Shown: positions 15,919 through 58,104, numbered from the stretch's first letter. The stretch: 64,000 nt of DNA from a virus (IMGVR_UViG_3300002056_000074), one strand, 5' to 3'. The notes: a model not told the origin generated them from the sequence alone. Translations and numbers: made by a program.

Positions 15919-17619
15919 ATGCCAAAAAAGGTAAATATTGAGAAAATGATCGCCGATGCAATAGAGTATCATGGTGATCATTATTCTTTTGAAAATTTCA
16001 CATATAGTGGAAATAAAAAATTTTGCACTATAACATGTAAATATCATGGTGATTTTCAAATTCGAGCAGGGCAATTTTTCAATCCATCCTCTCTAACTGG
16101 GTGTAGAAAATGTGGAATTATAAAAAATTCAAAATCTAAAAAATTGGATAGGGAAGAGGTATTTGATCGAATATATAAAAAATTTAATAATGCGTTTAAT
16201 ATAGATACTGAGTCATATACTTTGGTTAATTCACCATTAACATGCATCTGCCCTAAACATGGGGAGTTTGTTACTAGCGCAAATAGATTATTAAATCCTA
16301 AAATGAAATATGGGTGCAATTATTGTGCAACAGAACATGGATCTAAGAAGTTAAAATTATCAGATTCGGTACTTGAAGAAAGGTTGTTGGGAAAATATCC
16401 GTCATTTAAATTTGATATGAGTACTTATACTGCTGTCAATAAAAATATTAAATATGTATGTCCCGATCATGGAATAATGTTCTCAACGCCAAAAAATTTA
16501 TTACGTGATGATGTTAAACATGGGTGTATAAAATGTAGCCATGATTCAAATGCAGAAAAATTATTATTAACGGCTGATCAAATAAACGAACGTTTGATTA
16601 ATCGATTTAATGGAAAGATTAAATTTTTAAAATTTCCCAAAAACGATGATGGAATGCATACATTCGAGTGTTTACATCATGGAAAATTTGAAAATTTATT
16701 ATTTAATGTATTACAACCAAATAATGTTCATGGATGTAGAAAATGTTCTCGAATGGGAAATTCTAAATTTGAGGAGGGTATTAAATTATACTTATCTCAA
16801 ATATCACACTCAATCCAACGAGGAAATAGGAAAGTAATAAAACCACAAGAATTAGATTTTGTTTTAAATAACGAAATAGCAATTGAGTGTAACGGAAATT
16901 ATTGGCATTCAGAATTACAGGGGAAAGCGAAAAACTACCATTTAAATAAAACAGAAAAATGTAATGAATCTAATATTCGATTGATACATATTAGAGAGGA
17001 TGAATGGGAACATAAATCTGATATTGTTAAATCTCGCTTATCAAATATTTTACACTCAGATAATATAAAAAAATATCATGCTAGAAAACTAATAGTTAAA
17101 ATAGTCTCTAAGAAAAATGAAATGCAGTTTTTGGTCGATAATCACATACAAGGAAAATGCCCAAGTTCATTGGCCATAGGGTTATACGATGGAGTTGAAT
17201 TACTATCTATTATGACTTTTGGTAAATCAAGGTTTAATAAGAATTATGAATATGAACTTATTAGATTTTGCTCTAAAAATTTTACTTTGGTTCGGGGAGC
17301 TGCCAGTAGGTTATTTTCATATTTCATAAAAAATTATGATCCTAAGTCTATAGTGTCTTACTCTGATAGAGCGTGGAATACCGGAAAGTTATATGAATCT
17401 TTAGGATTTGAATTTAGTCATAACTCAACACCCAATTATAAATATTTTCATAGAAGTAGCGTATTACATTTAATGTCTAGACAAAAATTCCAAAAACATA
17501 AACTATCGAATATTCTAGAACATTATGATTCTAATAAGACCGAATGGGAAAATATGCAAGATAATAATTATGATAGAATTTGGGATTGTGGAAATTCGGT
17601 ATATGTATGGATGAAATAA
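15919..17619 (+). CDS. Homing endonuclease-like protein (CxxHG zinc-ribbon repeats, PD-(D/E)XK domain, C-terminal Hef-like domain)
   Basis: Repeated C..HG.F...L....GC..C units; ELDF..IAIECNGNYWH; C-terminal YDRIWDCG. Confidence 0.8.
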   Translation: MPKKVNIEKMIADAIEYHGDHYSFENFTYSGNKKFCTITCKYHGDFQIRAGQFFNPSSLTGCRKCGIIKNSKSKKLDREEVFDRIYKKFNNAFNIDTESYTLVNSPLTCICPKHGEFVTSANRLLNPKMKYGCNYCATEHGSKKLKLSDSVLEERLLGKYPSFKFDMSTYTAVNKNIKYVCPDHGIMFSTPKNLLRDDVKHGCIKCSHDSNAEKLLLTADQINERLINRFNGKIKFLKFPKNDDGMHTFECLHHGKFENLLFNVLQPNNVHGCRKCSRMGNSKFEEGIKLYLSQISHSIQRGNRKVIKPQELDFVLNNEIAIECNGNYWHSELQGKAKNYHLNKTEKCNESNIRLIHIREDEWEHKSDIVKSRLSNILHSDNIKKYHARKLIVKIVSKKNEMQFLVDNHIQGKCPSSLAIGLYDGVELLSIMTFGKSRFNKNYEYELIRFCSKNFTLVRGAASRLFSYFIKNYDPKSIVSYSDRAWNTGKLYESLGFEFSHNSTPNYKYFHRSSVLHLMSRQKFQKHKLSNILEHYDSNKTEWENMQDNNYDRIWDCGNSVYVWMK

Positions 17620-19415: not shown

Positions 19416-19468
19416 AGTTATCGGCTAGCAGTAGGAATCCCCCGTCTTTAGGCGTGGGGAGATGTCAA
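19416..19468 (+). mobile_element. IS200/IS605-family right-end remnant
   Basis: GAAT guide, CCCC..GGGG hairpin and terminal TCAA (IS608-type RE layout); preceded by TTAA. Confidence 0.75.
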
Positions 19469-33035: not shown

Positions 33036-34907
33036 TTGAGTAAGAATTATAGTGAAGATGATATTAAGGTATTGTCTGAAATTGAGCATATTCATAAGCG
33101 AACATCCATGTATCTCGGAACTACTGAGGAGACTGAATATCAAGTACCACTATTAAATAATACTTTTGAGATAGCAAATATTAGTTTTATTCCGGCAGTA
33201 ATGAAATTATTTTCCGAGATTGTTGATAACGCCAACGATGAGTTAATACAGGCTAATGTTAAATCACCTACAATAACAATAACCGCAGATTATGAAAGTC
33301 AAATTTTTTCAGTGGAAGATAATGGTAGAGGAATTCCTATTGGTAAGCATGAAACCGGGAAGTATACACCCGAGGTTGTATTTACATCTCTTCGATCAGG
33401 AAGGAATTTTTCCGATAATAAACAAAAGGGTGTTATAGGGTTAAATGGTGTAGGCTCTAGTATAGTGTGTATGTGCTCTGAATGGTTTGAGATTGAGATA
33501 TATCGTGATGGTAAGTGTTATAAGCAACTGTTTAGTGATGCATCTCGAATCATTGGCGACCCAATTATTTCAAAATCAAAGCGAATATCAGGAACTAAAG
33601 TATCTTTCAAATTGATGGATGGTATATTTAAAGATAAAACTCTACCAGAATCGTTAATTAGAAATCGGGCTGTCGAATTAGCAGCAACCAATCCCAATAC
33701 TAAAATAATTCTCAATGATGAGGAGTTTTTATATAAGAGGGGATTTCCAGAATTGGTATCTAATTATTTTGATGAAAGTATTCTCTTCGGTAATGATGAA
33801 ATAGAGTTTCATATTATTCGTGACTTTCATAAGGGACAAAATGAGCTTATTTTTTCATGGGTTAATAGTTCATTTTTGTATAATGGTGGTATTTGTAATA
33901 CGCAATTTATGAATGCATTCGTTGATAAAACTATTTCTCATTTAGCTACAATAGCAAAAAAACGAAAAATTAAATTGACTCGGGGGGATGTCCTCACAAA
34001 TTTACTATTTCTTGGAAATCTTAAAGTTAGTGATCCACAATATGATTCTCAAGCAAAAACTAAATTGACTGGCCCAAATTTGCGAAAGCCGATGGATGAT
34101 ATTATTGAGGCTAAGTGGAAGTTGTTTGTTCGAAATAATAAAGACTGGTTAGAAGAAATTGTTGAGCGTGCTGTTAGGAGAAGTAATGTTGCCGCTACAA
34201 AAGATATTTTAAAAGATGTTGGGAAAAGCAAGAAAATAAAATTAGAAGGATTTATGGATGCGACATCAAAGCAGCGCGAAGAATGTCAGTTATTGATAAC
34301 AGAAGGATTATCTGCAAGGGCCAATATAGTTGAATCCCGGAATCCAGAGACTATGGCTGCTTTGCCCCTAACCGGAAAAATAAACAATGTATATGGGGCT
34401 TCAGTGGCAGAATTAATGAAAATGGGCAAGGTATCTGATTTAATTAATGTCATTGGTTTGGTTCCCGGAAAAAGGGCAATTCGATCAGAACTTCGATATG
34501 GAAAAGTACATATATGTTCAGATGCAGATACTGATGGTGATCATATATGCGCTCTATTAATAAATCTGTTTTATCAATTTTGGCCAGAATTATTTGATCC
34601 ACGCTACCCACCATTTTTTCATAGAATGGTTGTTCCAAATATTGTTGCAGTTAAAGGGAAGAAAAGAATTCATTTTCCAAATAGGGGATCATATGAGGTG
34701 GTGAAAAATAAATATAAATCGTATGAAATTTCATATTTAAAGGGGTTGGCAACCATGAGTCGTGTAGATTGGGCAATGATTCTTGGTGGAGAATTTGATT
34801 CCTGTGATCCGATTCAGGATATTGATGGGACACTAGCTGACGTTATGAAGTTATTATTCAGCCCTGATGTTGATGCAAGAAAGGAATGGTTACACGCTGA
34901 TGAGTAG
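33036..34907 (+). CDS. Type II DNA topoisomerase large (ATPase+TOPRIM) subunit, T4 gp39+60-like
   Basis: EIVDNA.DE, DNGRGIP, GLNGVG, TEGLSA, DAD.DG.HI, YLKGL. Confidence 0.95.
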   Translation: MSKNYSEDDIKVLSEIEHIHKRTSMYLGTTEETEYQVPLLNNTFEIANISFIPAVMKLFSEIVDNANDELIQANVKSPTITITADYESQIFSVEDNGRGIPIGKHETGKYTPEVVFTSLRSGRNFSDNKQKGVIGLNGVGSSIVCMCSEWFEIEIYRDGKCYKQLFSDASRIIGDPIISKSKRISGTKVSFKLMDGIFKDKTLPESLIRNRAVELAATNPNTKIILNDEEFLYKRGFPELVSNYFDESILFGNDEIEFHIIRDFHKGQNELIFSWVNSSFLYNGGICNTQFMNAFVDKTISHLATIAKKRKIKLTRGDVLTNLLFLGNLKVSDPQYDSQAKTKLTGPNLRKPMDDIIEAKWKLFVRNNKDWLEEIVERAVRRSNVAATKDILKDVGKSKKIKLEGFMDATSKQREECQLLITEGLSARANIVESRNPETMAALPLTGKINNVYGASVAELMKMGKVSDLINVIGLVPGKRAIRSELRYGKVHICSDADTDGDHICALLINLFYQFWPELFDPRYPPFFHRMVVPNIVAVKGKKRIHFPNRGSYEVVKNKYKSYEISYLKGLATMSRVDWAMILGGEFDSCDPIQDIDGTLADVMKLLFSPDVDARKEWLHADE

Positions 34908-36402
34908 TAAAAAATCTCAAGAGCAAGTTATTCATGAATTTAAAGAAAATCACGGAAATAAATTTGATTATAGTGAAGTTGTTTACGAAGGCACTAATAA
35001 CAAGGTTTCTATAATTTGTCCCATACATGGAAAATTTTATCAAACTCCACGAGAACATATAAAGAGAAGTTTTGGTTGCAGGGAATGTAGTATAGAGTAC
35101 GCAAGAACAAAGACCACTATTTCAACAGAAGACTATATCAATTCGATAGATATTAATCACAGAAATTTGTATGATTTATCAAAGGTTAAATATGTTAGAA
35201 ACAAAAAAAAGATAATAGTTATATGCCCGAAGCATGGAGAATTTACTATATCGGCCGCAGTATTTAAAAATGGTGGTGGATGCACTAAATGCCAATATGA
35301 AAAACTTTCCAACCTTAATAGAGATTCTGAATCTTCTTTTATAGAAAAAAGTAAATTACTCTTCGGCAAAGATTATTTTAATTATTGGCCCATGCAATAT
35401 GGTAAAAATGGACTAGACTATATATATCTGTGGTGCAATAAACATAGTAAACTAGTTAAAACAAAGCCTCAGTATCATTTACAGGGAAATAACTCATGTA
35501 GGAGTTGTAGGAGTTGTAGTATGTTTGAATTGACCATTAAAAATTTTTTAGATGAGCATAATATAGAATATATCGAAAATGATAAAAGGTTACTACATCC
35601 CAAAGAGATAGATATTGTAATACCTGACCACAATATAGGAATTGAATGTGATGGTATATATTGGCACGGTGAAAGTAAGGGGAAATATAAAAAATATCAT
35701 TTGGAAAAAACTTTATCTGCGAATAATAATAATTATAGATTGATACATATTTTTGAAAATGAAATAATTAATAATGAAGAATTGGTTAAATCGAGATTAT
35801 CGGTAATTTTAAAATTATCAAATATTAAAAAATATGGCGCTAGGGAATTGCGTGTTGATTATGTTGATAAACAATTATGTGTTGATTTCTTAAACGAAAA
35901 CCATATACAGAAAAGTAGTAGTTCTAGTATTGATATTGCATTATTTCGGGAGACTGAGATAATTGCAGTGATGACATTTGGTATGGCGAGGTACAGTCAA
36001 CGACACGAGTATGAATTGATACGATTTTGTTGTAAAAAATTTGTTACTGTTAGTGGTGGTGCTTCTAAATTATTTAAATATTTTATAAAGAATCATAATC
36101 CAAAATCGATAGTATCATATTCAGATATTCGCTGGAATACGGGCAAATTATACAAAAATCTCGGATTTCTCGAAACTCATAAATCTGCACCCAATTATAA
36201 ATATTTTTGCAAACCCGACATATATAACCTACTATCTAGGGTTTCTTTTCAAAAGCACAAACTAAAATCTAAATTACTCCACTATGATGAAAAACTCACA
36301 GAATGGGAAAATATGCAAGCAAATGGATATGATAGAATATGGGATTGTGGGAACATTGTATTTGAATGGTTGCAACCTGTTAAAGATAATGATATAATTT
36401 AA
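34900..36402 (+). CDS. Homing endonuclease-like protein, paralog of 15919..17619
   Basis: ICPIHG/ICPKHG repeats, IGIECDGIYWH, YDRIWDCG; likely start at 34900 overlapping the topo stop. Confidence 0.8.
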   Translation: MSSKKSQEQVIHEFKENHGNKFDYSEVVYEGTNNKVSIICPIHGKFYQTPREHIKRSFGCRECSIEYARTKTTISTEDYINSIDINHRNLYDLSKVKYVRNKKKIIVICPKHGEFTISAAVFKNGGGCTKCQYEKLSNLNRDSESSFIEKSKLLFGKDYFNYWPMQYGKNGLDYIYLWCNKHSKLVKTKPQYHLQGNNSCRSCRSCSMFELTIKNFLDEHNIEYIENDKRLLHPKEIDIVIPDHNIGIECDGIYWHGESKGKYKKYHLEKTLSANNNNYRLIHIFENEIINNEELVKSRLSVILKLSNIKKYGARELRVDYVDKQLCVDFLNENHIQKSSSSSIDIALFRETEIIAVMTFGMARYSQRHEYELIRFCCKKFVTVSGGASKLFKYFIKNHNPKSIVSYSDIRWNTGKLYKNLGFLETHKSAPNYKYFCKPDIYNLLSRVSFQKHKLKSKLLHYDEKLTEWENMQANGYDRIWDCGNIVFEWLQPVKDNDII

Positions 36403-48558: not shown

Positions 48559-48843
48559 TTAATATTTCCTTTTTAGTCTTTCTAAATCTATAGATTTCAT
48601 AACAATATCATATACAGATATGCACGGACATACTTCTAAGCAACTCGATGAACCAGAACCAGACTGTGCTACCCTCTTCCTAAAGTCCCTATCAGTATTT
48701 AACCGACGTATAATATCTACGTATCTAGCATCAGCTTCTTCTCGTGATTCAAATATAGTCCCCTGTATAATGTCGGGGACCATATTATCATGTGAATCAC
48801 TCCAAAAATAATCATTTGGTTTAGTATTTCTTATAAAAAACAT
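48559..48843 (-). CDS. Array paralog
   Basis: GTIFESREEA; C-term IDLERLKRKY. Confidence 0.75.
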   Translation of the reverse strand: MFFIRNTKPNDYFWSDSHDNMVPDIIQGTIFESREEADARYVDIIRRLNTDRDFRKRVAQSGSGSSSCLEVCPCISVYDIVMKSIDLERLKRKY

Positions 48844-48864
48844 ATACTTATTTATCCCAAAAAT

Positions 48865-49173
48865 TTAACACCGATTTATACGCTTTAAATTATCAATAGA
48901 CCTTTGTAATGCAGTAATTTCCATCGCAACAAGATTAGTATCGCAATGTAGTAAAAATTGGCGAGTGGAAAAAAGTGTATTCTTAATCATGTTAGATTCT
49001 AACCTATTTTTCATAAGATCTATAACTTCCTGCGCCTCAGCAGATGAAGAAAATATTTTTGCACCCATTTGACTATGAAAAACACTAAGACCCAAAATTC
49101 TATCGTAGTCCAACTCATAATCTTCTAGATAGAAATTTGTGCTGGTGTTTCTTATTGAATATAATCGCTTCAT
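48865..49173 (-). CDS. Array paralog
   Basis: AKIFSSSAEA; C-term SIDNLKRI. Confidence 0.7.
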   Translation of the reverse strand: MKRLYSIRNTSTNFYLEDYELDYDRILGLSVFHSQMGAKIFSSSAEAQEVIDLMKNRLESNMIKNTLFSTRQFLLHCDTNLVAMEITALQRSIDNLKRINRC

Positions 49174-49472
49174 CGTATAGCTCGCATTCGTTCAATACCT
49201 AGAAAATCACCAAGATCATATTCATAAATTCGTAGCCCATCAGCTATAAACTGTAGCATCAAGACACCTTCACCATCATAAGCCAAAGCAAATATGTCTT
49301 CTTTGAATTTAGTTGCATCTGTCATACAATCAAATAAGTGTGCCTCACCCACAACGGTTGTCAACAATTCTAAAGACCGCCCACCTTCGGAATTTCTATC
49401 ATCATTAATGAATAATTTGTTGGTGGAAATAAAATGATTAAATTCTTGATGGTATAGAAGATATTTTATCAT
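49170..49472 (-). CDS. Array paralog
   Basis: AHLFDCMTDA; C-term LGIERMRAIR. Confidence 0.78.
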   Translation of the reverse strand: MIKYLLYHQEFNHFISTNKLFINDDRNSEGGRSLELLTTVVGEAHLFDCMTDATKFKEDIFALAYDGEGVLMLQFIADGLRIYEYDLGDFLGIERMRAIR

Positions 49473-49768
49473 GTTTTAATTTTTTGCATTCTTTCTAGTT
49501 TGAGAAATTTTTTCATCTTTTCAATGGTTATAGCTTCTATGTTTATTATATCAGATAGGGTGTTGGAGATCAATATACTACCTGATGTTAGCATCAATAA
49601 TGATTTATGTTTATCTGCTGAGTGATATGTATCAAATAGTGCAACCCTAGTCATATTAGACGAAAATATATTGGTTAACAAATCAACAGATTCGGACGCG
49701 AATGCAGCATCGGTGGTTACATAAGAATTATTAGCAACGTTCCTCAATACAAAATATTTAACAGTCAT
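49469..49768 (-). CDS. Array paralog
   Basis: VALFDTYHSA; C-term LKLERMQKIK. Confidence 0.78.
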   Translation of the reverse strand: MTVKYFVLRNVANNSYVTTDAAFASESVDLLTNIFSSNMTRVALFDTYHSADKHKSLLMLTSGSILISNTLSDIINIEAITIEKMKKFLKLERMQKIKT

Positions 49769-50105
49769 ATCGAATATTCTTTAAACGTTCAAGATTGAGA
49801 TATCTTTTAAACTTCGTCGTATAGTCATTGTCGGTAACAATAACGAAATCATTCATTATAATACAGTTGTCCATGTTTTTACTAATATCTCCATTCCAAT
49901 ATTTTATTTTATTCAATGCATCTTCTGCAGATTCTTCTGATGTATAAGGACGTGCTTTACTTGGATCACCTGAAAGAATCATTTCATCAAAAATAAAACT
50001 AGCTGATACTGGTGGAGAATTTGATTTATCGATATAAAATCCCATTTTTGTTTCGGTTATTCCGGTGAAGTAACTCATGGTTTGTGGGCGAATAATATAA
50101 AACAT
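49758..50105 (-). CDS. Array paralog
   Basis: ARPYTSEESA; C-term LNLERLKNIR. Confidence 0.78.
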   Translation of the reverse strand: MFYIIRPQTMSYFTGITETKMGFYIDKSNSPPVSASFIFDEMILSGDPSKARPYTSEESAEDALNKIKYWNGDISKNMDNCIIMNDFVIVTDNDYTTKFKRYLNLERLKNIRYDC

Positions 50106-50149
50106 AGTGAAGATTCCTTAAAACAACATTTTTATATTTTTATAATATA

Positions 50150-50462
50150 TCATATACCTGTAAATGCCAATAACTTCATTCGGTTGATCCCCACCATATC
50201 CTTGAAATAGGGCTTAGAGAATGATACCACTCGCATTCTACCAATTAGAAATGTCATTAATAATGAAGTATTTTTCATATTCTGGAACCGTTTAACGTGT
50301 GCATCGGCGTCACTATATTCAGGAAAAAAAATAAGCCCCACATAGAGTTTGGGTTAATATAGATTTAGTGGTATCGTCTGAGCCATCTGTTGAGACAGCA
50401 ATATCAACAGTCGTTAGGTATGCCCCAACTGTATCTATCTGTATTACATAAACATTATCCAT
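50150..50462 (-). pseudogene. Array paralog frameshifted in a T8 run
   Basis: MDNVYVIQI... frame stops just after T8 (50324-50331); T7 would give GAYFFPEYSDA...VGINRMKLL. Confidence 0.7.
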
Positions 50463-50464
50463 AA

Positions 50465-50731
50465 TTAAACTTTCTGTAATCGTCTAATAGCATCATATAT
50501 TGGATCTTTTACAACCTTCTGATTAAATCGTTTGGTACTAATAAAATTCTCAATTATATATTCTTCTGCTGCCTCGCGACTTTTAAACTGCATACACCCA
50601 TTAAACCATATGCGAAATTTGCAACCTATTATATCATGATGAAGATAATAAATTGTGCCCTCTGGGTCGTCATCACGTATTCTATCACAAGTTATTATAA
50701 ATTTATCGTCCACGTTAACTATAACCACCAA
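50465..50731 (-). CDS. Array paralog
   Basis: CMQFKSREAA; C-term AIRRLQKV. Confidence 0.7.
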   Translation of the reverse strand: MVVIVNVDDKFIITCDRIRDDDPEGTIYYLHHDIIGCKFRIWFNGCMQFKSREAAEEYIIENFISTKRFNQKVVKDPIYDAIRRLQKV

Positions 50732-50774
50732 GAAATGGCACGAAAATAGTATATTTTAAATTTTCTTCTTTTTG

Positions 50775-51110
50775 TTATACGATACTCTTGAGTCTTTCTA
50801 GACCAATAACTTTTGACATATATTCTCTATTGACTTGGCGAACAACTATACCATCCTCATACAAAGATAACACATTTTCTGGATCATGAGATACTTTATA
50901 CCTGATCATTCCCCGAGCATCTGCCGACCTCCTCACATATTCCATTGCATGTAAAGCATCTGCTATATTGAAATACAATATAGCACTAAAGACATCATAG
51001 GTAAAATAATCATAATCAACAAACCTGTTTTGAAAATGCATATCACTATAGGCTATTTTTACCGTATATATTTTTTCAATATTGCCGAATGGTATATTAC
51101 GTTTCAACAC
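50775..51110 (-). CDS. Array paralog
   Basis: AILYFNIADA; C-term IGLERLKSIV. Confidence 0.78.
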   Translation of the reverse strand: MLKRNIPFGNIEKIYTVKIAYSDMHFQNRFVDYDYFTYDVFSAILYFNIADALHAMEYVRRSADARGMIRYKVSHDPENVLSLYEDGIVVRQVNREYMSKVIGLERLKSIV

Positions 51111-51484
51111 CGACTAATATCCTGCATTCGGAAAATAGTTTCCGGTAATGATATTTGATTTACATAGAAACCATCTCGAATACATAAACAATTTACATCA
51201 ATTACTTTTGGTTTTTCAAGATTGAAACTACATAACATTTTACCTTTATGATATTTGATGGCAGTATTTACAATTGTTTCGAGAAATTCATATGCAGTTG
51301 ACCAACCCATAAAACTGTAAGTAATCTCGTCTGAAAGATTTAATATTCTTATTCTATTATTACTAGAATAAACAGCACTACTAATCGAAAAATCAGTATA
51401 TTTCACACTAATGGCGTAGGCACTATCCAACTTTTTATAAAATAGTCTATCATAATTCTGTAAAATTACATTATTATAATCCAT
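51104..51484 (-). CDS. Array paralog (diverged)
   Basis: YSFMGWSTA; C-term IFRMQDI. Confidence 0.6.
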   Translation of the reverse strand: MDYNNVILQNYDRLFYKKLDSAYAISVKYTDFSISSAVYSSNNRIRILNLSDEITYSFMGWSTAYEFLETIVNTAIKYHKGKMLCSFNLEKPKVIDVNCLCIRDGFYVNQISLPETIFRMQDISRC

Positions 51485-51502
51485 TTCTTGATAACTCTCT
51501 CT

Positions 51503-51816
51503 TTGACATCCACCCCACGTCTAAAAGACGGGGGATTCCTCCAGCGAGACGGCCATGCCCGACCGCGAAATATATTTGTTCGTCCGCATCACTGGCAAAT
51601 ACATTCTTATTCAAGTTATGCCAAATGGCACGAACATAACTCGGTTATATTGCTTTATTGCTTTATTGCTTTATTGCTTTATTGTTACAACCCGATGGCC
51701 TAATAACCGGATACGTCGAGTTGATGGAAAGATGTTACTTGATTTGATTGAATATGTCAAGCACTTTCGTGCCTTATATCCCCATATCTGAAGAAAGGGG
51801 ATTTACAGCACATTTG
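51503..51816 (-). mobile_element. Non-autonomous IS200/IS605-family miniature element (314 bp)
   Basis: Minus strand: TTAA target, LE CAAATGTGCTGT-AAAT-CCCC..GGGG-ATATAAGGC, RE GAAT-CCCCC..GGGG-TGGATG-TCAA; internal TTGCTTTA x4. Confidence 0.85.
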
Positions 51817-51910
51817 TTAATCTATCAATTTTTATATCCGCCCTCAAATAAGCTTCGAAAATATTCGAAGCTATTAAAATATCTACAGATTCTTCAGTTT
51901 TGGTTGTCAC
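51817..51910 (-). pseudogene. Mini array paralog duplicating the 3' end of 52182..52523, interrupted by the MITE
   Basis: TEESVDILIASNIFEAYLRADIKIDRL vs TEESADILIASNIFEDYLKADIKLDRLKR; removing the MITE restores DRLKRELSRNGL*. Confidence 0.7.
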
Positions 51911-52185
51911 GAGATTTCTTCTCCGCTTCTTCGAATTTCCTTAGTTCTCCGAAGTTCTATTAAATTCATAAAATCACATTTAATAATTTCACAATCACGA
52001 AACATCATCATATATAAATATGAAGCACTACTCAGCAGTTCCAAGTGATCTTCGGCCTTCTTTACTGATGTAAAAAACAAAGCTTTCTTGATATCCACTA
52101 CAAACATATTTTGAATGTCAGTCGATGAATCAAAGGCAATGTAAGAATTAATTGAACTGTCATATATTGCATATACATTTTTCAT
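51907..52185 (-). CDS. Array paralog
   Basis: ALFFTSVKKA; C-term IELRRTKEI. Confidence 0.72.
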   Translation of the reverse strand: MKNVYAIYDSSINSYIAFDSSTDIQNMFVVDIKKALFFTSVKKAEDHLELLSSASYLYMMMFRDCEIIKCDFMNLIELRRTKEIRRSGEEIS

Positions 52186-52523
52186 CGAATAACTCTTTTT
52201 AATCTATCGAGTTTTATATCTGCCTTCAAATAATCTTCAAAAATATTCGAAGCTATTAAAATATCTGCAGATTCTTCAGTAATACATTCAGGATATCCAT
52301 CAAAAAAATATTTAAATTTCTTTCTTTTTGGCATCCTAGCTTCTAATATATAATCAATAGACCAAATAGCATTTTGTTTAGAAGAAAATGTGTAACAATC
52401 AAGAATGTCATCAGTAAACATTATTAATTCTTTACCCTCATCGAAATTTTTATAATATGCTGGTCTATTGGTAAGTATGAGCGTATACAATTCGGTCGAA
52501 GATTTTGACATTCTAGTTTTCAC
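52182..52523 (-). CDS. Array paralog
   Basis: CYTFSSKQNA; C-term IKLDRLKRVI. Confidence 0.78.
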   Translation of the reverse strand: MKTRMSKSSTELYTLILTNRPAYYKNFDEGKELIMFTDDILDCYTFSSKQNAIWSIDYILEARMPKRKKFKYFFDGYPECITEESADILIASNIFEDYLKADIKLDRLKRVIR

Positions 52524-52590
52524 TTAATTTTTCATAGCCATATCTTACCATGATTGGAATACTATTAATATGAAATAGGTCAGTTAATAT

Positions 52591-52881
52591 CTAATCTAAA
52601 TCATCCATACCGAAGAGCGGTAGCCGCTTAATTTGTTGCAGCCTATCGAGAATACTTTTAAAGGGTGATTTTTCAATTTTATAAGAATATACACCATGTT
52701 CAAATACTATATCACAGAAAGTATTCGCTTCTTCAAGTGTATTAAATGTAATACAACCAAGTTCTACTGATTTGAAATCATAAAGGCTGTTAATGATATT
52801 ATTTTCTTCATGAAGAAATATTGTTTTCATGTTTGGATTAGAAGAGGGTTTATTGAGTATGATTACATATTCTATTTTCAT
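52591..52881 (-). CDS. Array paralog
   Basis: CITFNTLEEA; C-term ILDRLQQI. Confidence 0.75.
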   Translation of the reverse strand: MKIEYVIILNKPSSNPNMKTIFLHEENNIINSLYDFKSVELGCITFNTLEEANTFCDIVFEHGVYSYKIEKSPFKSILDRLQQIKRLPLFGMDDLD

Positions 52882-52917
52882 TGTGGTGTTTTTCTAATTT
52901 TCTGCAATCTGGGTACA

Positions 52918-53193
52918 TTAATTAATGTTTTTTCGTAATACTTCACACATCCTATCAACATTAATAATTTTAGACAAGTGAATTATTTCGAACATCCCAT
53001 CAGCAAAACCATACATTTTACTTGCTCTGTGAACTGCCTGATTAGCATTATCCATAGTTTTCCAAGCAGTTGCATTGTTTATAATTCCAGTGAGATTCAT
53101 ACTGGAATCATCACCACCACATAGATAGACGTTTGGTAATATAATTCCATCCTTACCATCGGGGTAAACTGTTAATTTAACAATATACATCAA
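52918..53193 (-). CDS. Array paralog
   Basis: ATAWKTMDNA; C-term INVDRMCEV. Confidence 0.75.
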   Translation of the reverse strand: MMYIVKLTVYPDGKDGIILPNVYLCGGDDSSMNLTGIINNATAWKTMDNANQAVHRASKMYGFADGMFEIIHLSKIINVDRMCEVLRKNIN

Positions 53194-53456
53194 TATTGCC
53201 TAGTGACAGTCTTCATCCTTAAAATTTCAAGACTACCAAACAAATCATATTCAACAATTCGTAAGTCCTTAACAATTCTTACGTGATGGAGACTGTTTAT
53301 GGCATTTTCAGCACTTTCCATACTAGTAAAAAGTTGCGCATGATGTATATGTCTGGTGAACAAACTATTAGGATTGTTGGGGCTAGCAAAATATGTCCGA
53401 AAGTCCGTATTTAAAACATACATATCCCGCACAAACTCACGAATAATATAATTCAT
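53190..53456 (-). CDS. Array paralog (true start MNYII at 53456)
   Basis: AQLFTSMESA; C-term LEILRMKTV; the upstream in-frame extension is IS-derived. Confidence 0.75.
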   Translation of the reverse strand: MNYIIREFVRDMYVLNTDFRTYFASPNNPNSLFTRHIHHAQLFTSMESAENAINSLHHVRIVKDLRIVEYDLFGSLEILRMKTVTRQY

Positions 53457-53739
53457 AATCTTTGACATCCACCCCACGTCTAAAAGACGGGGGATTTGCG
53501 ACACATTCACTAATTAATTCAGAAGCATGGATTATTAGTATATTACTATTATCCATATTATGATATTCAACCATTAAATCATCTACAACTTTACTGACTT
53601 CGTAGTATGTATACCAGAGTTTCGCAAGGTTACAATTATCAAATAATTTCATTTCGCCTGAAATTTCCCCAACATACTTGGTTGAGTTTGGTACAGACCA
53701 AATGGATGGTTGCCAATCTTTTATTTCAATAATATACAC
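53437..53739 (-). CDS. Array paralog with C-terminus overwritten by an IS605 mini-element
   Basis: MYIIEIK, AKLWYTYYEV; last residues SECVANPPSFRRGVDV are read from the element. Confidence 0.7.
   Translation of the reverse strand: MYIIEIKDWQPSIWSVPNSTKYVGEISGEMKLFDNCNLAKLWYTYYEVSKVVDDLMVEYHNMDNSNILIIHASELISECVANPPSFRRGVDVKDYELYYS
53462..53509 (-). mobile_element. About 48-bp IS200/IS605 left-end/right-end hybrid (single hairpin)
   Basis: LE-like lead TGAATGTGTCGC-AAAT joined to a hairpin and TCAA end identical to the 51503 RE (36-bp exact match). Confidence 0.75.
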
Positions 53740-53740
53740 A

Positions 53741-54022
53741 TTAACACCGCTTAATTTCTAACAATCTATCAAGTTTGCACAAACCCCAAATATCAATTCT
53801 AATCACCTCAGCTGCTACAATATCAAGTCGAATATGACACAGCTTCTCTAGTTCATCATTAGCCTCTTCTTTACGTTTCCATACCATCGCATCTTCTAGG
53901 CCATTACAAAACCTATTGTGGCCGATTGTGGTGATATTATTATAGTCAAGTATATAGGTATTCTCCAAAGATGAAACAGCAAATCCCGGTGGCCTACACT
54001 TAGTAATTTTAATAGTGTACAT
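53741..54022 (-). CDS. Array paralog
   Basis: AMVWKRKEEA; C-term CKLDRLLEI. Confidence 0.78.
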   Translation of the reverse strand: MYTIKITKCRPPGFAVSSLENTYILDYNNITTIGHNRFCNGLEDAMVWKRKEEANDELEKLCHIRLDIVAAEVIRIDIWGLCKLDRLLEIKRC

Positions 54023-54141
54023 AATTAATCAGTATAGCATTTTTAGTCGTGATAAGTTTATACCATACCTCATTACATCCATTATAGAAATTAATAATAG
54101 ATAACTAGTTCACATTTTATTCGGAAAAAATTTTCTCTGGA

Positions 54142-54411
54142 TCAAATTTCGGATTTACAATTACTCAATATTGATTTCATTTGTTTCAACCCAATTAAAT
54201 CTTTAAGAATATCTTCCATATCGATTATTTCAGAAGAGCTGGCAGCGCCATTCCAATCATTTACGGTCCCGATTGCAGATTCAACTTCATCTCTAGTATT
54301 CCACACTCTAGCATCTGATGCATCTACTGTAGTGTCAATCCGCACAAGAGAAACCCACTTGATGAAATAAGTTTTATCATCAAAAACAACAGTAATTCCA
54401 TAAAATTTCAT
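54142..54411 (-). CDS. Array paralog
   Basis: ARVWNTRDEV; C-term IGLKQMKSI. Confidence 0.78.
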   Translation of the reverse strand: MKFYGITVVFDDKTYFIKWVSLVRIDTTVDASDARVWNTRDEVESAIGTVNDWNGAASSSEIIDMEDILKDLIGLKQMKSILSNCKSEI

Positions 54412-54418
54412 AGTTTTA

Positions 54419-54700
54419 TTATATCCTAATAATATTTTTCAATCGAGTTAAACCTAAATCATATTTGCCAATTTCATCTAGATTAACAATCTCAACTTTC
54501 CTTAATCCTTTAATTCCAAGCAACCACTCTGTTAATAATTTCATATCCTCATTAGCATCATCCTCTGTTATCCATATCCGAGCTGCCCATGCATATGAAG
54601 TCATATCACAATATGTCTGATTAATTATAGGCAATACATTGATGTTACTTGCATAATAACAACTATCATTAATGATTATTCGAATTCCATAATATATCAT
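54419..54700 (-). CDS. Array paralog
   Basis: ARIWITEDDA; C-term LGLTRLKNI. Confidence 0.78.
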   Translation of the reverse strand: MIYYGIRIIINDSCYYASNINVLPIINQTYCDMTSYAWAARIWITEDDANEDMKLLTEWLLGIKGLRKVEIVNLDEIGKYDLGLTRLKNIIRI

Positions 54701-54972
54701 TTTATACTCACAGATTTCATTCTATCTATACCCAATTCTCCTCGAATTTTAGTACATTCAACAATAGAAGAATTTACCAACTCTTGAGTAAATGCAGTCA
54801 TATGAATAAACTCTACTTTTATTTGAGTAAGCACTGCAGTTGCAGCTTCTCTGCTTGTGAATATAAATGCTTTGTGTGGATTGGGAGATGCAAATATATA
54901 ATCTTTGTCATATGGATTATTACTCGCAATAAAAATATTATATTGCTCGTTAAAAATAATATATACCTTCAT
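54697..54972 (-). CDS. Array paralog
   Basis: AFIFTSREAA; C-term LGIDRMKSV. Confidence 0.78.
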   Translation of the reverse strand: MKVYIIFNEQYNIFIASNNPYDKDYIFASPNPHKAFIFTSREAATAVLTQIKVEFIHMTAFTQELVNSSIVECTKIRGELGIDRMKSVSIK

Positions 54973-55259
54973 GTCAAATTCTTCATTCGATTGATGTTAA
55001 TTTGATCTCTAATTATTTCTTCTGCATCAATGACATGTATTGATAATCGCATACTCTGTATTTTATTACAAAGCGCCAATATTTTTTTTACTAATTCTTC
55101 GTCATAAAATATCACTGCGTTTGCGATATTTTGGCCAAATGTTGGCCAATCATCAACATCAACATTAACAACGTAATCAAAATTTTCGATAGTTCGTGTG
55201 TTGAGATCCACAGTACGCATTTCAATAGCCATATATTTAAGATTATATAATTTTCCCAT
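54969..55259 (-). CDS. Array paralog
   Basis: AVIFYDEELV; C-term ININRMKNL. Confidence 0.78.
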   Translation of the reverse strand: MGKLYNLKYMAIEMRTVDLNTRTIENFDYVVNVDVDDWPTFGQNIANAVIFYDEELVKKILALCNKIQSMRLSIHVIDAEEIIRDQININRMKNLT

Positions 55260-55293
55260 GAGATGCCATCTTATTTTAATTCATCTGGATTAT

Positions 55294-55512
55294 TTAATCA
55301 CCACCTTCTATCGCTGCCATCATATCTTCATGTTCCAAAATAGTAACATCAAGCATTTTGGCCATTCGCCTATACATTCGTAACACGCTGGGCGTCTGGT
55401 CAGAGTCATTACAACTCGAATCAAATATATCTCGCAAATCTGCGATTTCTTGTATAGAAGCATTGGCAATAGTTTCGATGATTATTAATGTTTCATCCGG
55501 ATCAATTTTCAT
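55294..55512 (-). CDS. Hypothetical protein (not array family)
   Basis: 72-aa helical ORF. Confidence 0.6.
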   Translation of the reverse strand: MKIDPDETLIIIETIANASIQEIADLRDIFDSSCNDSDQTPSVLRMYRRMAKMLDVTILEHEDMMAAIEGGD

Positions 55513-55517
55513 TATAT

Positions 55518-55733
55518 TTACCTACGTGGATTTCCTGTTAGTGCATCTAATAGTTGAATCATATGTTGGAGTTCGGATCTTTCCACTTCCAATAAACGAC
55601 ACGTCGAAATAATGTCACCAAGCTCTACTCTAACATTATGTATACGACCAGTGGTTTGATCTGATTCACATTTATCATCAAATGCGTTTTCTTTGTCTAG
55701 TTGTTCTGCTGCCCACTTTCGACCATCACCCAT
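55518..55733 (-). CDS. Hypothetical coiled-coil protein (not array family)
   Basis: 71-aa ORF with AGGAGAG RBS. Confidence 0.65.
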   Translation of the reverse strand: MGDGRKWAAEQLDKENAFDDKCESDQTTGRIHNVRVELGDIISTCRLLEVERSELQHMIQLLDALTGNPRR

Positions 55734-55811
55734 TTCATCTCTCCTAATTGTTTTTAGAACATGGATTATACCTATATCCTATCACATCCTAATATCATTT
55801 AGCCAACATAA

Positions 55812-56081
55812 TCAAATTCTCTGTATTGCCAACATTTGGTCAATTTTACATTCATCACGTAAGAAATCACTTAGATTTGTGGTAGTATATTGCATAACAT
55901 GCTGTGATTTATTTAACTCATCTACGAATTCATCAATATCATCCTTATTATTCCAAATTTCTGCGGCTGTTATATTAGCAGAATGTCCACATACTATATT
56001 CGTGTTATTTTTGTGTGATGTTATATAACTTACACGGCATAGAAATATGTCAGTACACTTAACCACATACATATTAACCAT
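55812..56081 (-). CDS. Array paralog
   Basis: AEIWNNKDDI; C-term CKIDQMLAI. Confidence 0.75.
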   Translation of the reverse strand: MVNMYVVKCTDIFLCRVSYITSHKNNTNIVCGHSANITAAEIWNNKDDIDEFVDELNKSQHVMQYTTTNLSDFLRDECKIDQMLAIQRI

Positions 56082-56260
56082 CTTCGTATTTCCTTTTTAA
56101 TTTTTCCAAGAGAGCCAATTCAATTTCCCGTTTATCTCTTGATTGGCGGCACTTCGAAAAGATCAACGCTTATAATCTCCCCCTCTGAATTACACACTTC
56201 ATCATTTCATGTCCTCATCAATATTTTAATATAACACAAACTAAAATATGTATTTGTGAA

Positions 56261-56449
56261 CTAATACTGCTTCAATCGCAATATAATAAGATAAAGTTCA
56301 TCCAACTCATCATTCATCTCTGCCAATATTGTCTTGGCTTCCAAAAACTTTTTTATATGGCGTCTAGAAAGCTTTCCTGTGTTTTGTCTGGCATTGTAGT
56401 ACGCAACAACACCCTTCATTCTATCCATATTAGCGGGTGTGTATTTCAT
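56261..56449 (-). CDS. Hypothetical protein
   Basis: 62-aa coupled ORF. Confidence 0.55.
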   Translation of the reverse strand: MKYTPANMDRMKGVVAYYNARQNTGKLSRRHIKKFLEAKTILAEMNDELDELYLIILRLKQY

Positions 56450-56715
56450 AAAAGTCTATTTACTAACTTCATTCTATTCAATTTAATACATTCAGTTCGT
56501 ATAATATGAGTGGCGTCAATAATTTCTAATGCTTCTTTTACTGCTGTAGATCGAATACGTGAAATAATTTTATAAACATCTACCATACTAAAAAATAGAG
56601 ATGCCTCATTTATACGGTCAGTTGCTAATAATGCACCTCCAGGATTTTCATACATGTAAAGTGGGATATTGCTGCCGCGCAAAAATTTATCTACTCTAAT
56701 AACATACATAATCAA
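56446..56715 (-). CDS. Array paralog
   Basis: ASLFFSMVDV; C-term IKLNRMKLV. Confidence 0.78.
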   Translation of the reverse strand: MIMYVIRVDKFLRGSNIPLYMYENPGGALLATDRINEASLFFSMVDVYKIISRIRSTAVKEALEIIDATHIIRTECIKLNRMKLVNRLL

Positions 56716-56957
56716 GATTTATCTATTGCCCTTAGTCTGTCAATATTAACAAATTCTCGAAGATGATTTTTAATATTAGTTACAACACCATAACAGTTCC
56801 ATTCGTATTTGAATGTGTTGAGTGTATCGTATGCTTCGTCAAATGTCTCCCACAATCTGGCTTCACGAAGTCTGGGTGTCATGAATATTTCCTCTTCATT
56901 CCAATGAGTAACATAACGTATATTATTGATGCCGATTTCTATTATATACATAATCAA
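56712..56957 (-). CDS. Array paralog
   Basis: ARLWETFDEA; C-term VNIDRLRAI. Confidence 0.78.
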   Translation of the reverse strand: MIMYIIEIGINNIRYVTHWNEEEIFMTPRLREARLWETFDEAYDTLNTFKYEWNCYGVVTNIKNHLREFVNIDRLRAIDKS

Positions 56958-57211
56958 ATCCTTTTTACAGATGCCATTCGTTTAAGCCCCAATTGATCCC
57001 TAACATATGAATCCTCAACCAAATCCACCCTATATTTCTTGGGGGATTTATCATAGATTAGTGTAAATTTTGAAAGCCATAACTGTGCATCCTCTTTCTT
57101 ATACCACATATACGCATTACGCAAAAGGTAGGTGGCCTCAATAGGCTCCAGCTCTCTAATATAATGCCCATGATTTTTATCTTCCTTAACGATATACATA
57201 ATTTTTATCAA
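56954..57211 (-). CDS. Array paralog
   Basis: AYMWYKKEDA; C-term LGLKRMASV. Confidence 0.78.
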   Translation of the reverse strand: MIKIMYIVKEDKNHGHYIRELEPIEATYLLRNAYMWYKKEDAQLWLSKFTLIYDKSPKKYRVDLVEDSYVRDQLGLKRMASVKRI

Positions 57212-57319
57212 TCACTTGTTTAGGATACAGGATAGTTTATCATATTAATGTATAGTCGTTCACTAATAATGATTTTCAAACTATGATATAGTCCCTATCC
57301 CAAAGAGGACAAAATCTCC

Positions 57320-57616
57320 ATGCCAGAAATATCAATCAAGACCGGCTACTTTTTTGCTATCATCTTCACTCTATTCGGATGGATCACGGCCATCAACCTC
57401 AGTCTCGTTCCACAATTCATTATATACGCCTCCCTTGCTTGGTTCATCACCACCTCATGGAAAGTCCAACAACTTGAATTAGGAGCAATTCCTTATTTTA
57501 TCATCTTTATTGGATATAGTCTTGGAGTATTAGCGGGCAATGCTGCCTACTTTCTCAAGTATGGATATACATCATCAAACACGTTATCTTTTCTATGGGA
57601 TCTAATCACACCTTAA
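57320..57616 (+). CDS. Multi-TM membrane protein
   Basis: Three hydrophobic segments; AGAGGA RBS. Confidence 0.7.
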   Translation: MPEISIKTGYFFAIIFTLFGWITAINLSLVPQFIIYASLAWFITTSWKVQQLELGAIPYFIIFIGYSLGVLAGNAAYFLKYGYTSSNTLSFLWDLITP

Positions 57617-57962: not shown

Positions 57963-58054
57963 AAAGGTCTGAGAGAATCCAAAATTTTTTTAGAAATTTT
58001 TAGAGATGTCGGGAATAATGGTGGGGTATTGTTTTTAGAGAGTTAGAAGAGTCG

Positions 58055-58104
58055 TTTTAGAAAGAATGATTTTAGAAAGAATGATTTTAGAAAGAATGAT
58101 TTTA
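58055..58104. repeat. 15-bp tandem repeat TTTTAGAAAGAATGA x3
   Basis: Direct reading. Confidence 0.9.

Follow-up and report, generated by a model that had tools for sequence, protein, structure and literature searches.

A tandem array of 28 small open reading frames (ORFs) of 47–126 residues, all in the same orientation, occupies positions 48559-57211 on the - strand of a 64,000-nt stretch of viral DNA (IMGVR_UViG_3300002056_000074; this whole stretch is referred to as the window). The array is a real protein family, and constitutes a lineage-specific multigene family derived from old tandem duplication, with at least 23 copies that carry a common C-terminal tail together with relics of others. 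A tentative reading, drawn by analogy and short of being probable, is that the family represents a panel of small binders, made early in infection to take over the host or to counter its defences, in which the tail would serve as a common interaction handle.

Paralogy was established by profile methods. A hidden Markov model (HMM) built from 7 seed members and iterated against 333 window ORFs and 1428 shuffled or reversed decoys converged on 20 ORFs, every one inside the array, and recovered none of the 1428 decoys and none of the approximately 300 other window ORFs. In leave-one-out searches 20/20 members were found again, with expect (E) values from 8e-14 to 5.5e-3 against about 0.06–0.2 for the best decoy; all-versus-all BLASTP among the array ORFs gave 11 pairs at E<1e-3. 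Four further tail-bearing ORFs (48865-49173, 52591-52881, 50465-50731 and 51104-51484) are probable diverged members, with hhalign E values of 2e-4, 9e-4, 0.014 and 0.084, respectively, and align in register with the family at a central A..F.s.eeA motif. These results confirm a preliminary description of the region, made from the sequence alone, as an array of about 25 diverged, co-oriented small paralogs; its gene set is retained as a family, now specified as lying on the - strand, with the exception of two ORFs (55518-55733 and 55294-55512) that turn out to be unrelated orphans.

Pairwise protein identity within the family averages 17.5% (range 7–32%), and DNA repeats in the array are confined to one 85-nt pair (91% identity) and one 38-nt element, in agreement with the earlier impression that DNA similarity has been nearly erased. 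The farther apart two members lie in the array, the lower their identity, a weak but significant trend (rho -0.21, permutation p 0.004) that fits old local duplication. Gaps between most ORFs range from -23 to +7 nt, often as ATGA-type overlaps, and such short or overlapping junctions suggest translational coupling.

A tail constrained at the protein level

A relaxed form of the tail, phi-[G/N/K]-[LI]-[D/E/N]-R-[ML]-[KR]-x-[IV], in most cases extended by x-[RK]-x, is found in 23 of the 28 array ORFs. Among these 23 tails, L or I is kept at its position in 22, the arginine in 20, M or L in 22, and I or V in 20. A strict pattern matches within the last 25 residues of 13 of the 28 ORFs, whereas 1000 shuffles gave 0.043 matches on average and never more than 1; in the other ORFs of the window the same pattern occurs twice in 30,463 residues, in neither case at a C-terminus. 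The motif arginines are encoded by AGA (9), AGG (3), CGA (7) and CGT (1), both CTN and TTR codons are used for the motif leucines, and the next start codon lies anywhere from -23 to +422 nt from the tail. The use of both codon families for Arg and Leu, together with this variable distance, points to constraint on the peptide and not on a DNA or RNA signal. A tail arising as a by-product of the Shine-Dalgarno sequence or promoter of the following gene was also considered, and is ruled out by the variable start distance and the mixed codon families. The mixed arginine codons also bear out, at the protein level, the initial proposal that the tail was kept while DNA similarity was lost. Four members end in cysteine (53741-54022, ...KRC; 51104-51484, ...SRC; 49758-50105, ...YDC; 48865-49173, ...NRC), three of which share a terminal CGGTGT-stop.

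The net charge of the tail is always +1 to +4, and that of the bodies ranges from +3 to -9, mostly neutral to acidic. Its hydrophobic moment is higher than in body windows (mean 0.41 versus 0.28, p 4e-4), and its mean hydrophobicity is low, at about 0.2. We take the tail to be a turn followed by a short basic amphipathic helix, private to the family. A basic segment with a conserved arginine might bind nucleic acid, in which case the family would consist of small RNA- or DNA-binding regulators, and rows of a fold library do place a similar core beside HNH, GIY-YIG and reverse-transcriptase domains. These rows reach template modelling (TM) scores of only about 0.45–0.57, however, and include no true fusion; the bodies are neutral to strongly acidic, and no known nucleic-acid-binding fold was matched. 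Such a role appears quite improbable. Very improbable, in our view, is a role of the tail as a membrane anchor, with a MinD/FtsA-type amphipathic helix that would bring the paralogs to the inner membrane. Its C-terminal location, length of about 10–13 residues, basic character and amphipathicity would all suit such an anchor, and of the 23 tails, 4 have a HeliQuest-type discriminant above 1.34 and most others one between 0.68 and 1.34, but the mean hydrophobicity is low, the moment only moderate, and the conserved acidic or N-cap residue and Gly turn are not known to be features of these anchors.

Predicted fold and relatives of the core

AlphaFold2 was given an 18-member alignment with the protein encoded at 54419-54700 as target, and returned a model with a mean predicted local distance difference test score (pLDDT) of 89.3 and a predicted TM score (pTM) of 0.76. 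Strands are modelled at residues 4-10, 13-23 and 28-34, followed by a helix at 46-60, a strand at 66-73, a helix at 74-81, and then the tail; the first helix begins at the motif A-x-x-[FW]-x-[ST]-x-[ED]-[ED]-A. Indels within the family concentrate in loops around the core strands. The variable bodies of the initial description are therefore not unrelated to one another: alignment and model both indicate a single conserved beta-beta-beta-helix-beta fold, within which loops and inserts vary. Each copy is a small, signal-less and presumably cytoplasmic protein. The most diverged ORF (51104-51484) was modelled with a pLDDT of 60 and a compatible order of strands, helix, strands and terminal helix, which lends weak support to its membership.

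Model confidence is not uniform along the chain, with pLDDT values of 86–97 in the core and of 65–68 in the last 13 residues, which are the best conserved. That the most conserved segment of the model has the lowest pLDDT would fit a motif that requires a partner. A different explanation, possible although rather unlikely in our estimate, is that the tail is a structural or self-association element, i.e. a C-terminal helix that caps an open sheet face or lets paralogs oligomerise, each paralog acting alone and without a shared external partner. The tail directly continues strand 66-73 and helix 74-81 of a compact domain, its conserved hydrophobic positions are helically spaced, its hydrophobic moment is raised, and family-specific terminal extensions are common on small folds. 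Against this, homologues outside the array fold the same core without such a tail, the lowest model confidence falls on the best-conserved segment, and the conserved Arg and Lys are residues of the exposed type. Prediction of a homodimer from two copies of the 54419-54700 protein gave a score of 0.00, which speaks neither for nor against binding.

Structure comparisons yielded no characterised counterpart of the model: Foldseek against the PDB gave nothing above background (E>0.5), as did a wide VIA-align structure search (best Z 4.5), a search of Swiss-Prot models and a PDB sequence profile search. The anti-CRISPR chain 8g9s_A (Z 4.4, 59 residues aligned) lies within search noise. Many uncharacterised small viral proteins, in turn, match residues 1-75 of the model, with TM scores by hit of 0.69–0.84.

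A profile search of 1.84 billion representative proteins returned 32 matches. Full-length matches (18/32) are all the window's own proteins or a one-residue variant thereof, and the 14 others cover the core only, in several long proteins with 2–7 repeats and some single-domain proteins of 59–131 residues. When the outside domains were aligned with one another (A2) and compared by hhalign with the profile of the array (A1), the two matched with 97.2% probability and an E value of 2.8e-11 over 51 columns. An HMM made solely from A2 picks out 11 members of the array at E<0.02, and no further ORF in the window. Judging from these alignments, the core is an old, common and widespread uncharacterised phage domain, to which the array is homologous, and, as far as the 1.8-billion representative search indicates, this lineage alone has the tail and the 24-fold amplification. 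The unnamed domain includes phrog_15945, phrog_5247, D3W0G7 of Lactococcus phage 1358, ORF150 and ORF158 of Vibrio phage ICP1 (BFVD), and the repeat proteins P0004, P0019 and P0020. It has in common with the array core a Y-[IV]-[IV] strand, a Y-rich second strand, a helix start of the form A-x-x-F-x-[ST]-x-[ED]-[ED]-A and a final strand, and viral models of it superpose on the array core with TM scores of 0.55–0.84. Unlike the array genes, the outside proteins lack the tail and occur as single genes or as intra-protein repeats, as opposed to some 24 tandem genes here; one outside homologue is the sole copy within an ordinary run of small co-oriented phage ORFs. Four of the long proteins, P0004 (1113 residues), P0019 (627 residues), P0020 (543 residues) and P0022 (1973 residues), contain 4–7 tandem core repeats per chain, and some such proteins carry Cys-rich, zinc-ribbon-like inserts, forming an uncharacterised class of repeat proteins.

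The initial statement that the family matches no described one therefore holds for curated families, and has to be amended for the core, which has these widespread uncharacterised homologues. Scans of members against Pfam, PHROGs and NCBIfam gave scattered sub-threshold matches only, and nothing but the queries themselves or proteins of the window came back from word-indexed searches. A search of IMG/VR with one member for related loci found nothing, and profile A1 had no match in five IMG/VR relatives (topoisomerase II approximately 50% identical; one record of 244 kb). Likewise, array DNA had no megablast match in 50,697 phage records, and tblastn with one member gave nothing useful against the same records.

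The core is possibly a distant relative of DUF2849 (PF11011), which we mention as a remote lead. The outside relative P0004 matches this family at an E value of 0.0024, below the cut-off; Atlas clusters of DUF2849 align to the model with TM scores of 0.54–0.59, weak evidence for so short a domain; and among named clusters the closest in features is a viral DUF2849 cluster (0.79–0.86). None of 18 array members matched PF11011, even at E 10. In some bacteria DUF2849 is a small protein required together with the sulfite reductase CysI (10.1101/072470). This bacterial role is of little guidance for phages; the array is phage-encoded and has no cysI context.

Genes, turnover and setting of the array

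The presumed start of leftward transcription is a divergent intergenic region upstream of the array (57212-57330) with -10-like boxes, which are consensus matches only. All genes described below lie on the - strand and are given in the direction of reading, with leave-one-out E values in brackets. Member 1 (56954-57199; 81 residues from MYIVK; tail LGLKRMASV; HMM E 1e-18, leave-one-out 7e-7) is followed by member 2 (56712-56951; 79 residues; VNIDRLRAI; 8e-14) and member 3 (56446-56709; 87 residues; IKLNRMKLV; 6e-8). The adjoining ORF of 62 residues (56261-56449), previously taken for a mini-copy, contains no core: it begins with the tail motif, ANMDRMKGV, which here is N-terminal, and continues as an unrelated helical stretch. 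The following member (55812-56081; 89 residues; CKIDQMLAI; 6e-8) has Gln instead of Arg in its tail, and is separated from the next by the two orphans, an acidic helical protein of 71 residues (55518-55733), which has no HMM match and no usable Atlas match, and a very acidic one of 72 residues (55294-55512; net charge -10).

The middle part of the array comprises members at 54969-55259 (96 residues; ININRMKNL; 1e-8) and 54697-54972 (91 residues; LGIDRMKSV; 2e-9), the modelled member (54419-54700; 93 residues; LGLTRLKNI), a member at 54142-54411 (89 residues; IGLKQMKSI) that forms the best BLASTP pair with its neighbour (E 5.5e-10), and a member at 53741-54022 (93 residues; CKLDRLLEI; 3e-7). 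After a core-only copy (53437-53739; 9e-5) come members at 53190-53456 (88 residues from MNYIIREF; LEILRMKTV; 2e-8) and 52918-53190 (90 residues; INVDRMCEV; 5e-6), the probable diverged member at 52591-52881 (96 residues; SILDRLQQI with a 12-residue extension), a member of 109 residues at 52182-52511 (IKLDRLKRV), and one with a degenerate tail at 51907-52185 (92 residues; IELRRTKEI; 4e-9).

The distal part contains the possible, most diverged member at 51104-51484 (126 residues; ETIFRMQDI), a member at 50775-51110 (111 residues; IGLERLKSI; 1.6e-4), the probable diverged member at 50465-50731 (88 residues; DAIRRLQKV), and a member split in two ORFs (50150-50462; VGINRMKLL). Members at 49758-50105 (115 residues; LNLERLKNI; 4e-11), 49469-49768 (99 residues; LKLERMQKI; 2e-5) and 49170-49472 (100 residues; LGIERMRAI; 2e-4) precede a probable member at 48865-49173 (102 residues; RSIDNLKRI), for which the hhalign match extends over 51 columns and the outside-only HMM gives an E value of 0.003, and the last member at 48559-48843 (94 residues; IDLERLKRKY; 2e-4).

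Several of these sequences are relics that display gene birth and death in the array. A frameshift in a T8 run (approximately 50322-50329) has divided a single copy into the two ORFs at 50319-50462 and 50150-50341; with seven T instead, the frame continues through GAYFFPEYSDADA. In the copy at 53437-53739 the core is kept and a 38-nt GC-rich stem-loop element stands in place of the tail, as read from the sequence. An orphan tail fragment (TEESVDILIASNIFEAYLRADIKIDRLTNVL*; 51803-51898) lies behind the gene at 51907-52185, and its 85-nt repeat part (51814-51898) is 91% identical at the DNA level to 52196-52280, at the end of the 52182-52511 gene, which is the source of this copy. The ORF at 56261-56449, with its N-terminal tail motif, belongs among these relics as well. 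The distance-dependent identity and the relics together indicate long retention of the family with turnover. A neutral or selfish expansion of decaying duplicates without present function would also leave behind such relics, including the frameshifted copy and the orphan tail, and the sampled relatives of the phage lack the family. Such an expansion is nevertheless extremely improbable, as approximately 23 frames have stayed open at 17.5% mean identity with the fold and the tail residues kept, which requires long purifying selection and argues for function over junk.

The 38-nt stem-loop element (AATCCCCCGTCTTTTAGACGTGGGGTGGATGTCAAAG, - strand) has two identical copies in the array (51500-51537 and 53459-53496), each 10–16 nt before a gene start, and an 84%-identical copy at 19422-19468, upstream of an oxidase gene. 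Logan contigs break at this element, and a similar 33-nt stretch occurs on a 23-kb contig of different depth. The element may act in regulation or recombination, in the manner of PeSL elements of large T4-like phages; its hairpin is not more stable than those of its own shuffles (z -0.9). A short contig, L003 (JGI 3300002055, 3139 nt), corresponds to window positions 51375-55037 without 53565-53686, 52260-52396 and 51652-51913, and is otherwise 99.9–100% identical. These gaps represent either strain deletions or low-coverage assembly artefacts, and Logan contigs of three runs neither confirm nor exclude them. Another contig, L004, is without one array segment, and there the gap is a run of N.

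Judged by its sequence, the array seems to be transcribed from host-type (sigma-70-like) promoters, and not from T4-type late ones, into polycistronic messages whose genes are tightly coupled. No TATAAATA was found on the array strand, i.e. no T4-type late promoter was seen, and the larger array gaps contain -10-like boxes, again as consensus matches only. A gap of 422 nt inside the array features, at 51648-51687 and 51732-51760 (- strand), a tandem repeat, (AATAAAGC)x4, as well as the region's best sigma-70-like site, TTGACA-17-TAACAT, directed along the array.

The source of the array is an uncultured myovirus-like jumbo phage of roughly 281 kb. Contigs as long as 280,865 bp encode proteins identical to those of the window, and the sequencing runs containing this DNA are labelled as algae metagenome. 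The window encodes ribonucleotide reductase, both topoisomerase II subunits, a split family-B DNA polymerase, a DnaB-like helicase, Hef-like homing endonucleases and one tRNA-Pro, the sole match of an Rfam scan. The topoisomerase II medium subunit shares only 32–34% identity with its counterparts in Phosso, Atu_ph07 and RaK2-type jumbo phages, and the phage is distantly T4/RaK2-like. The two DUF723 (Hef-like) homing-endonuclease genes lie at 15919-17619 and 34867-36402; one of them sits between the genes for the two subunits of topoisomerase II, and its DNA is 69–71% identical to Campylobacter phage Hef genes. Just past the array, a region of small genes contains a 15-nt unit in 3–4 copies (AAGAATGATTTTAGA; 58047-58104).

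Possible roles of the family

The designs closest to this array in the published record are, by analogy and not by membership, the internal proteins of T-even phages and the ankyrin/F-box families of poxviruses. T4 internal proteins (PMC3012670), which are used against host defence, resemble the array in design, as diverse small proteins that have only one short constant peptide in common. They differ in that their signal is N-terminal and cleaved after L/I-x-E, and their bodies are mutually unrelated, whereas the array combines a C-terminal peptide with paralogous bodies. The array products could, like T4 internal proteins, be packaged into the capsid and co-injected with the DNA, the tail acting as a capsid-targeting signal and the bodies as diverse anti-restriction or anti-defence proteins. 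The distant T4/RaK2-like affinity of the phage would be in keeping with this, and the phi-x-phi-[E/D] portion of the tail is reminiscent of L/I-x-E protease sites. The opposite location of the peptide, the presence of Glu at the would-be P1 position in just 5 of 23 tails, an array strand without T4-type late promoter, and the mutual homology of the bodies make capsid packaging improbable.

Poxvirus ankyrin/F-box-like (PRANC) families (PMC9414399, PMC4353913) consist of many paralogs in which a target-binding body is joined to a short C-terminal module that docks on a host hub. They are eukaryotic and ubiquitin-based, and have no relation in sequence or fold to the array. A strong form of this analogy, in which about 24 interchangeable receptors with different host or defence targets plug into one hub through the shared R-[ML]-K helix, would make the array a bacterial-virus counterpart of the poxvirus families; candidates for such a hub would be a host AAA+ protease, RNA polymerase or a phage-encoded adaptor. 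We consider this form distinctly unlikely. A Pfam scan of ten ORFs gave no match to a ClpP-like family.

The genomic setting is also reminiscent of the PeSL hyperplastic early regions of large T4-like phages (PMC4122927), where dense runs of small lineage-specific genes occupy the non-core part of the genome, as here; a repeated stem-loop element and signs of turnover by indels are present in the array too. In contrast to PeSL cassettes, a single family fills 8.6 kb, and the genes are mostly coupled and not each flanked by a promoter and stem-loop: most junctions (-23 to +7 nt) leave no room for a PeSL-type motif, and the 38-nt stem-loop occurs twice in the array. The one-fold-plus-tail family of this array is undescribed.

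In the reading that we tentatively prefer, that of an early-made panel of small binders, each copy would owe its own target to its variable loops and inserts, all would contact one shared partner or site through the conserved tail, and they would act early in infection, in host takeover or counter-defence. Several observations weigh against it. The shallow 18-sequence alignment may be all that lies behind the low pLDDT of the tail. There is no characterised protein with this fold, so that the term "binder" rests on analogy. Promoter-like sites in the region, as consensus matches only, are fewer than in shuffles (50 versus 64). None of the RNA runs searched contains the sequence. Finally, the absence of the family from the nearest sampled relatives implies that it is dispensable for this type of phage.

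Much of the coding space of large phages goes to small genes without assigned function. One fold amplified about 24-fold, long kept open and with a nine-residue tail held constant, represents an unusually clean natural experiment in this respect. The constant tail, as a peptide or as an Arg-to-Ala mutant, offers a direct handle for partner fishing, and the diverged bodies provide a ready panel for screens against defence systems and host factors. The partner, once found, would give a first functional foothold for a widespread uncharacterised core domain.

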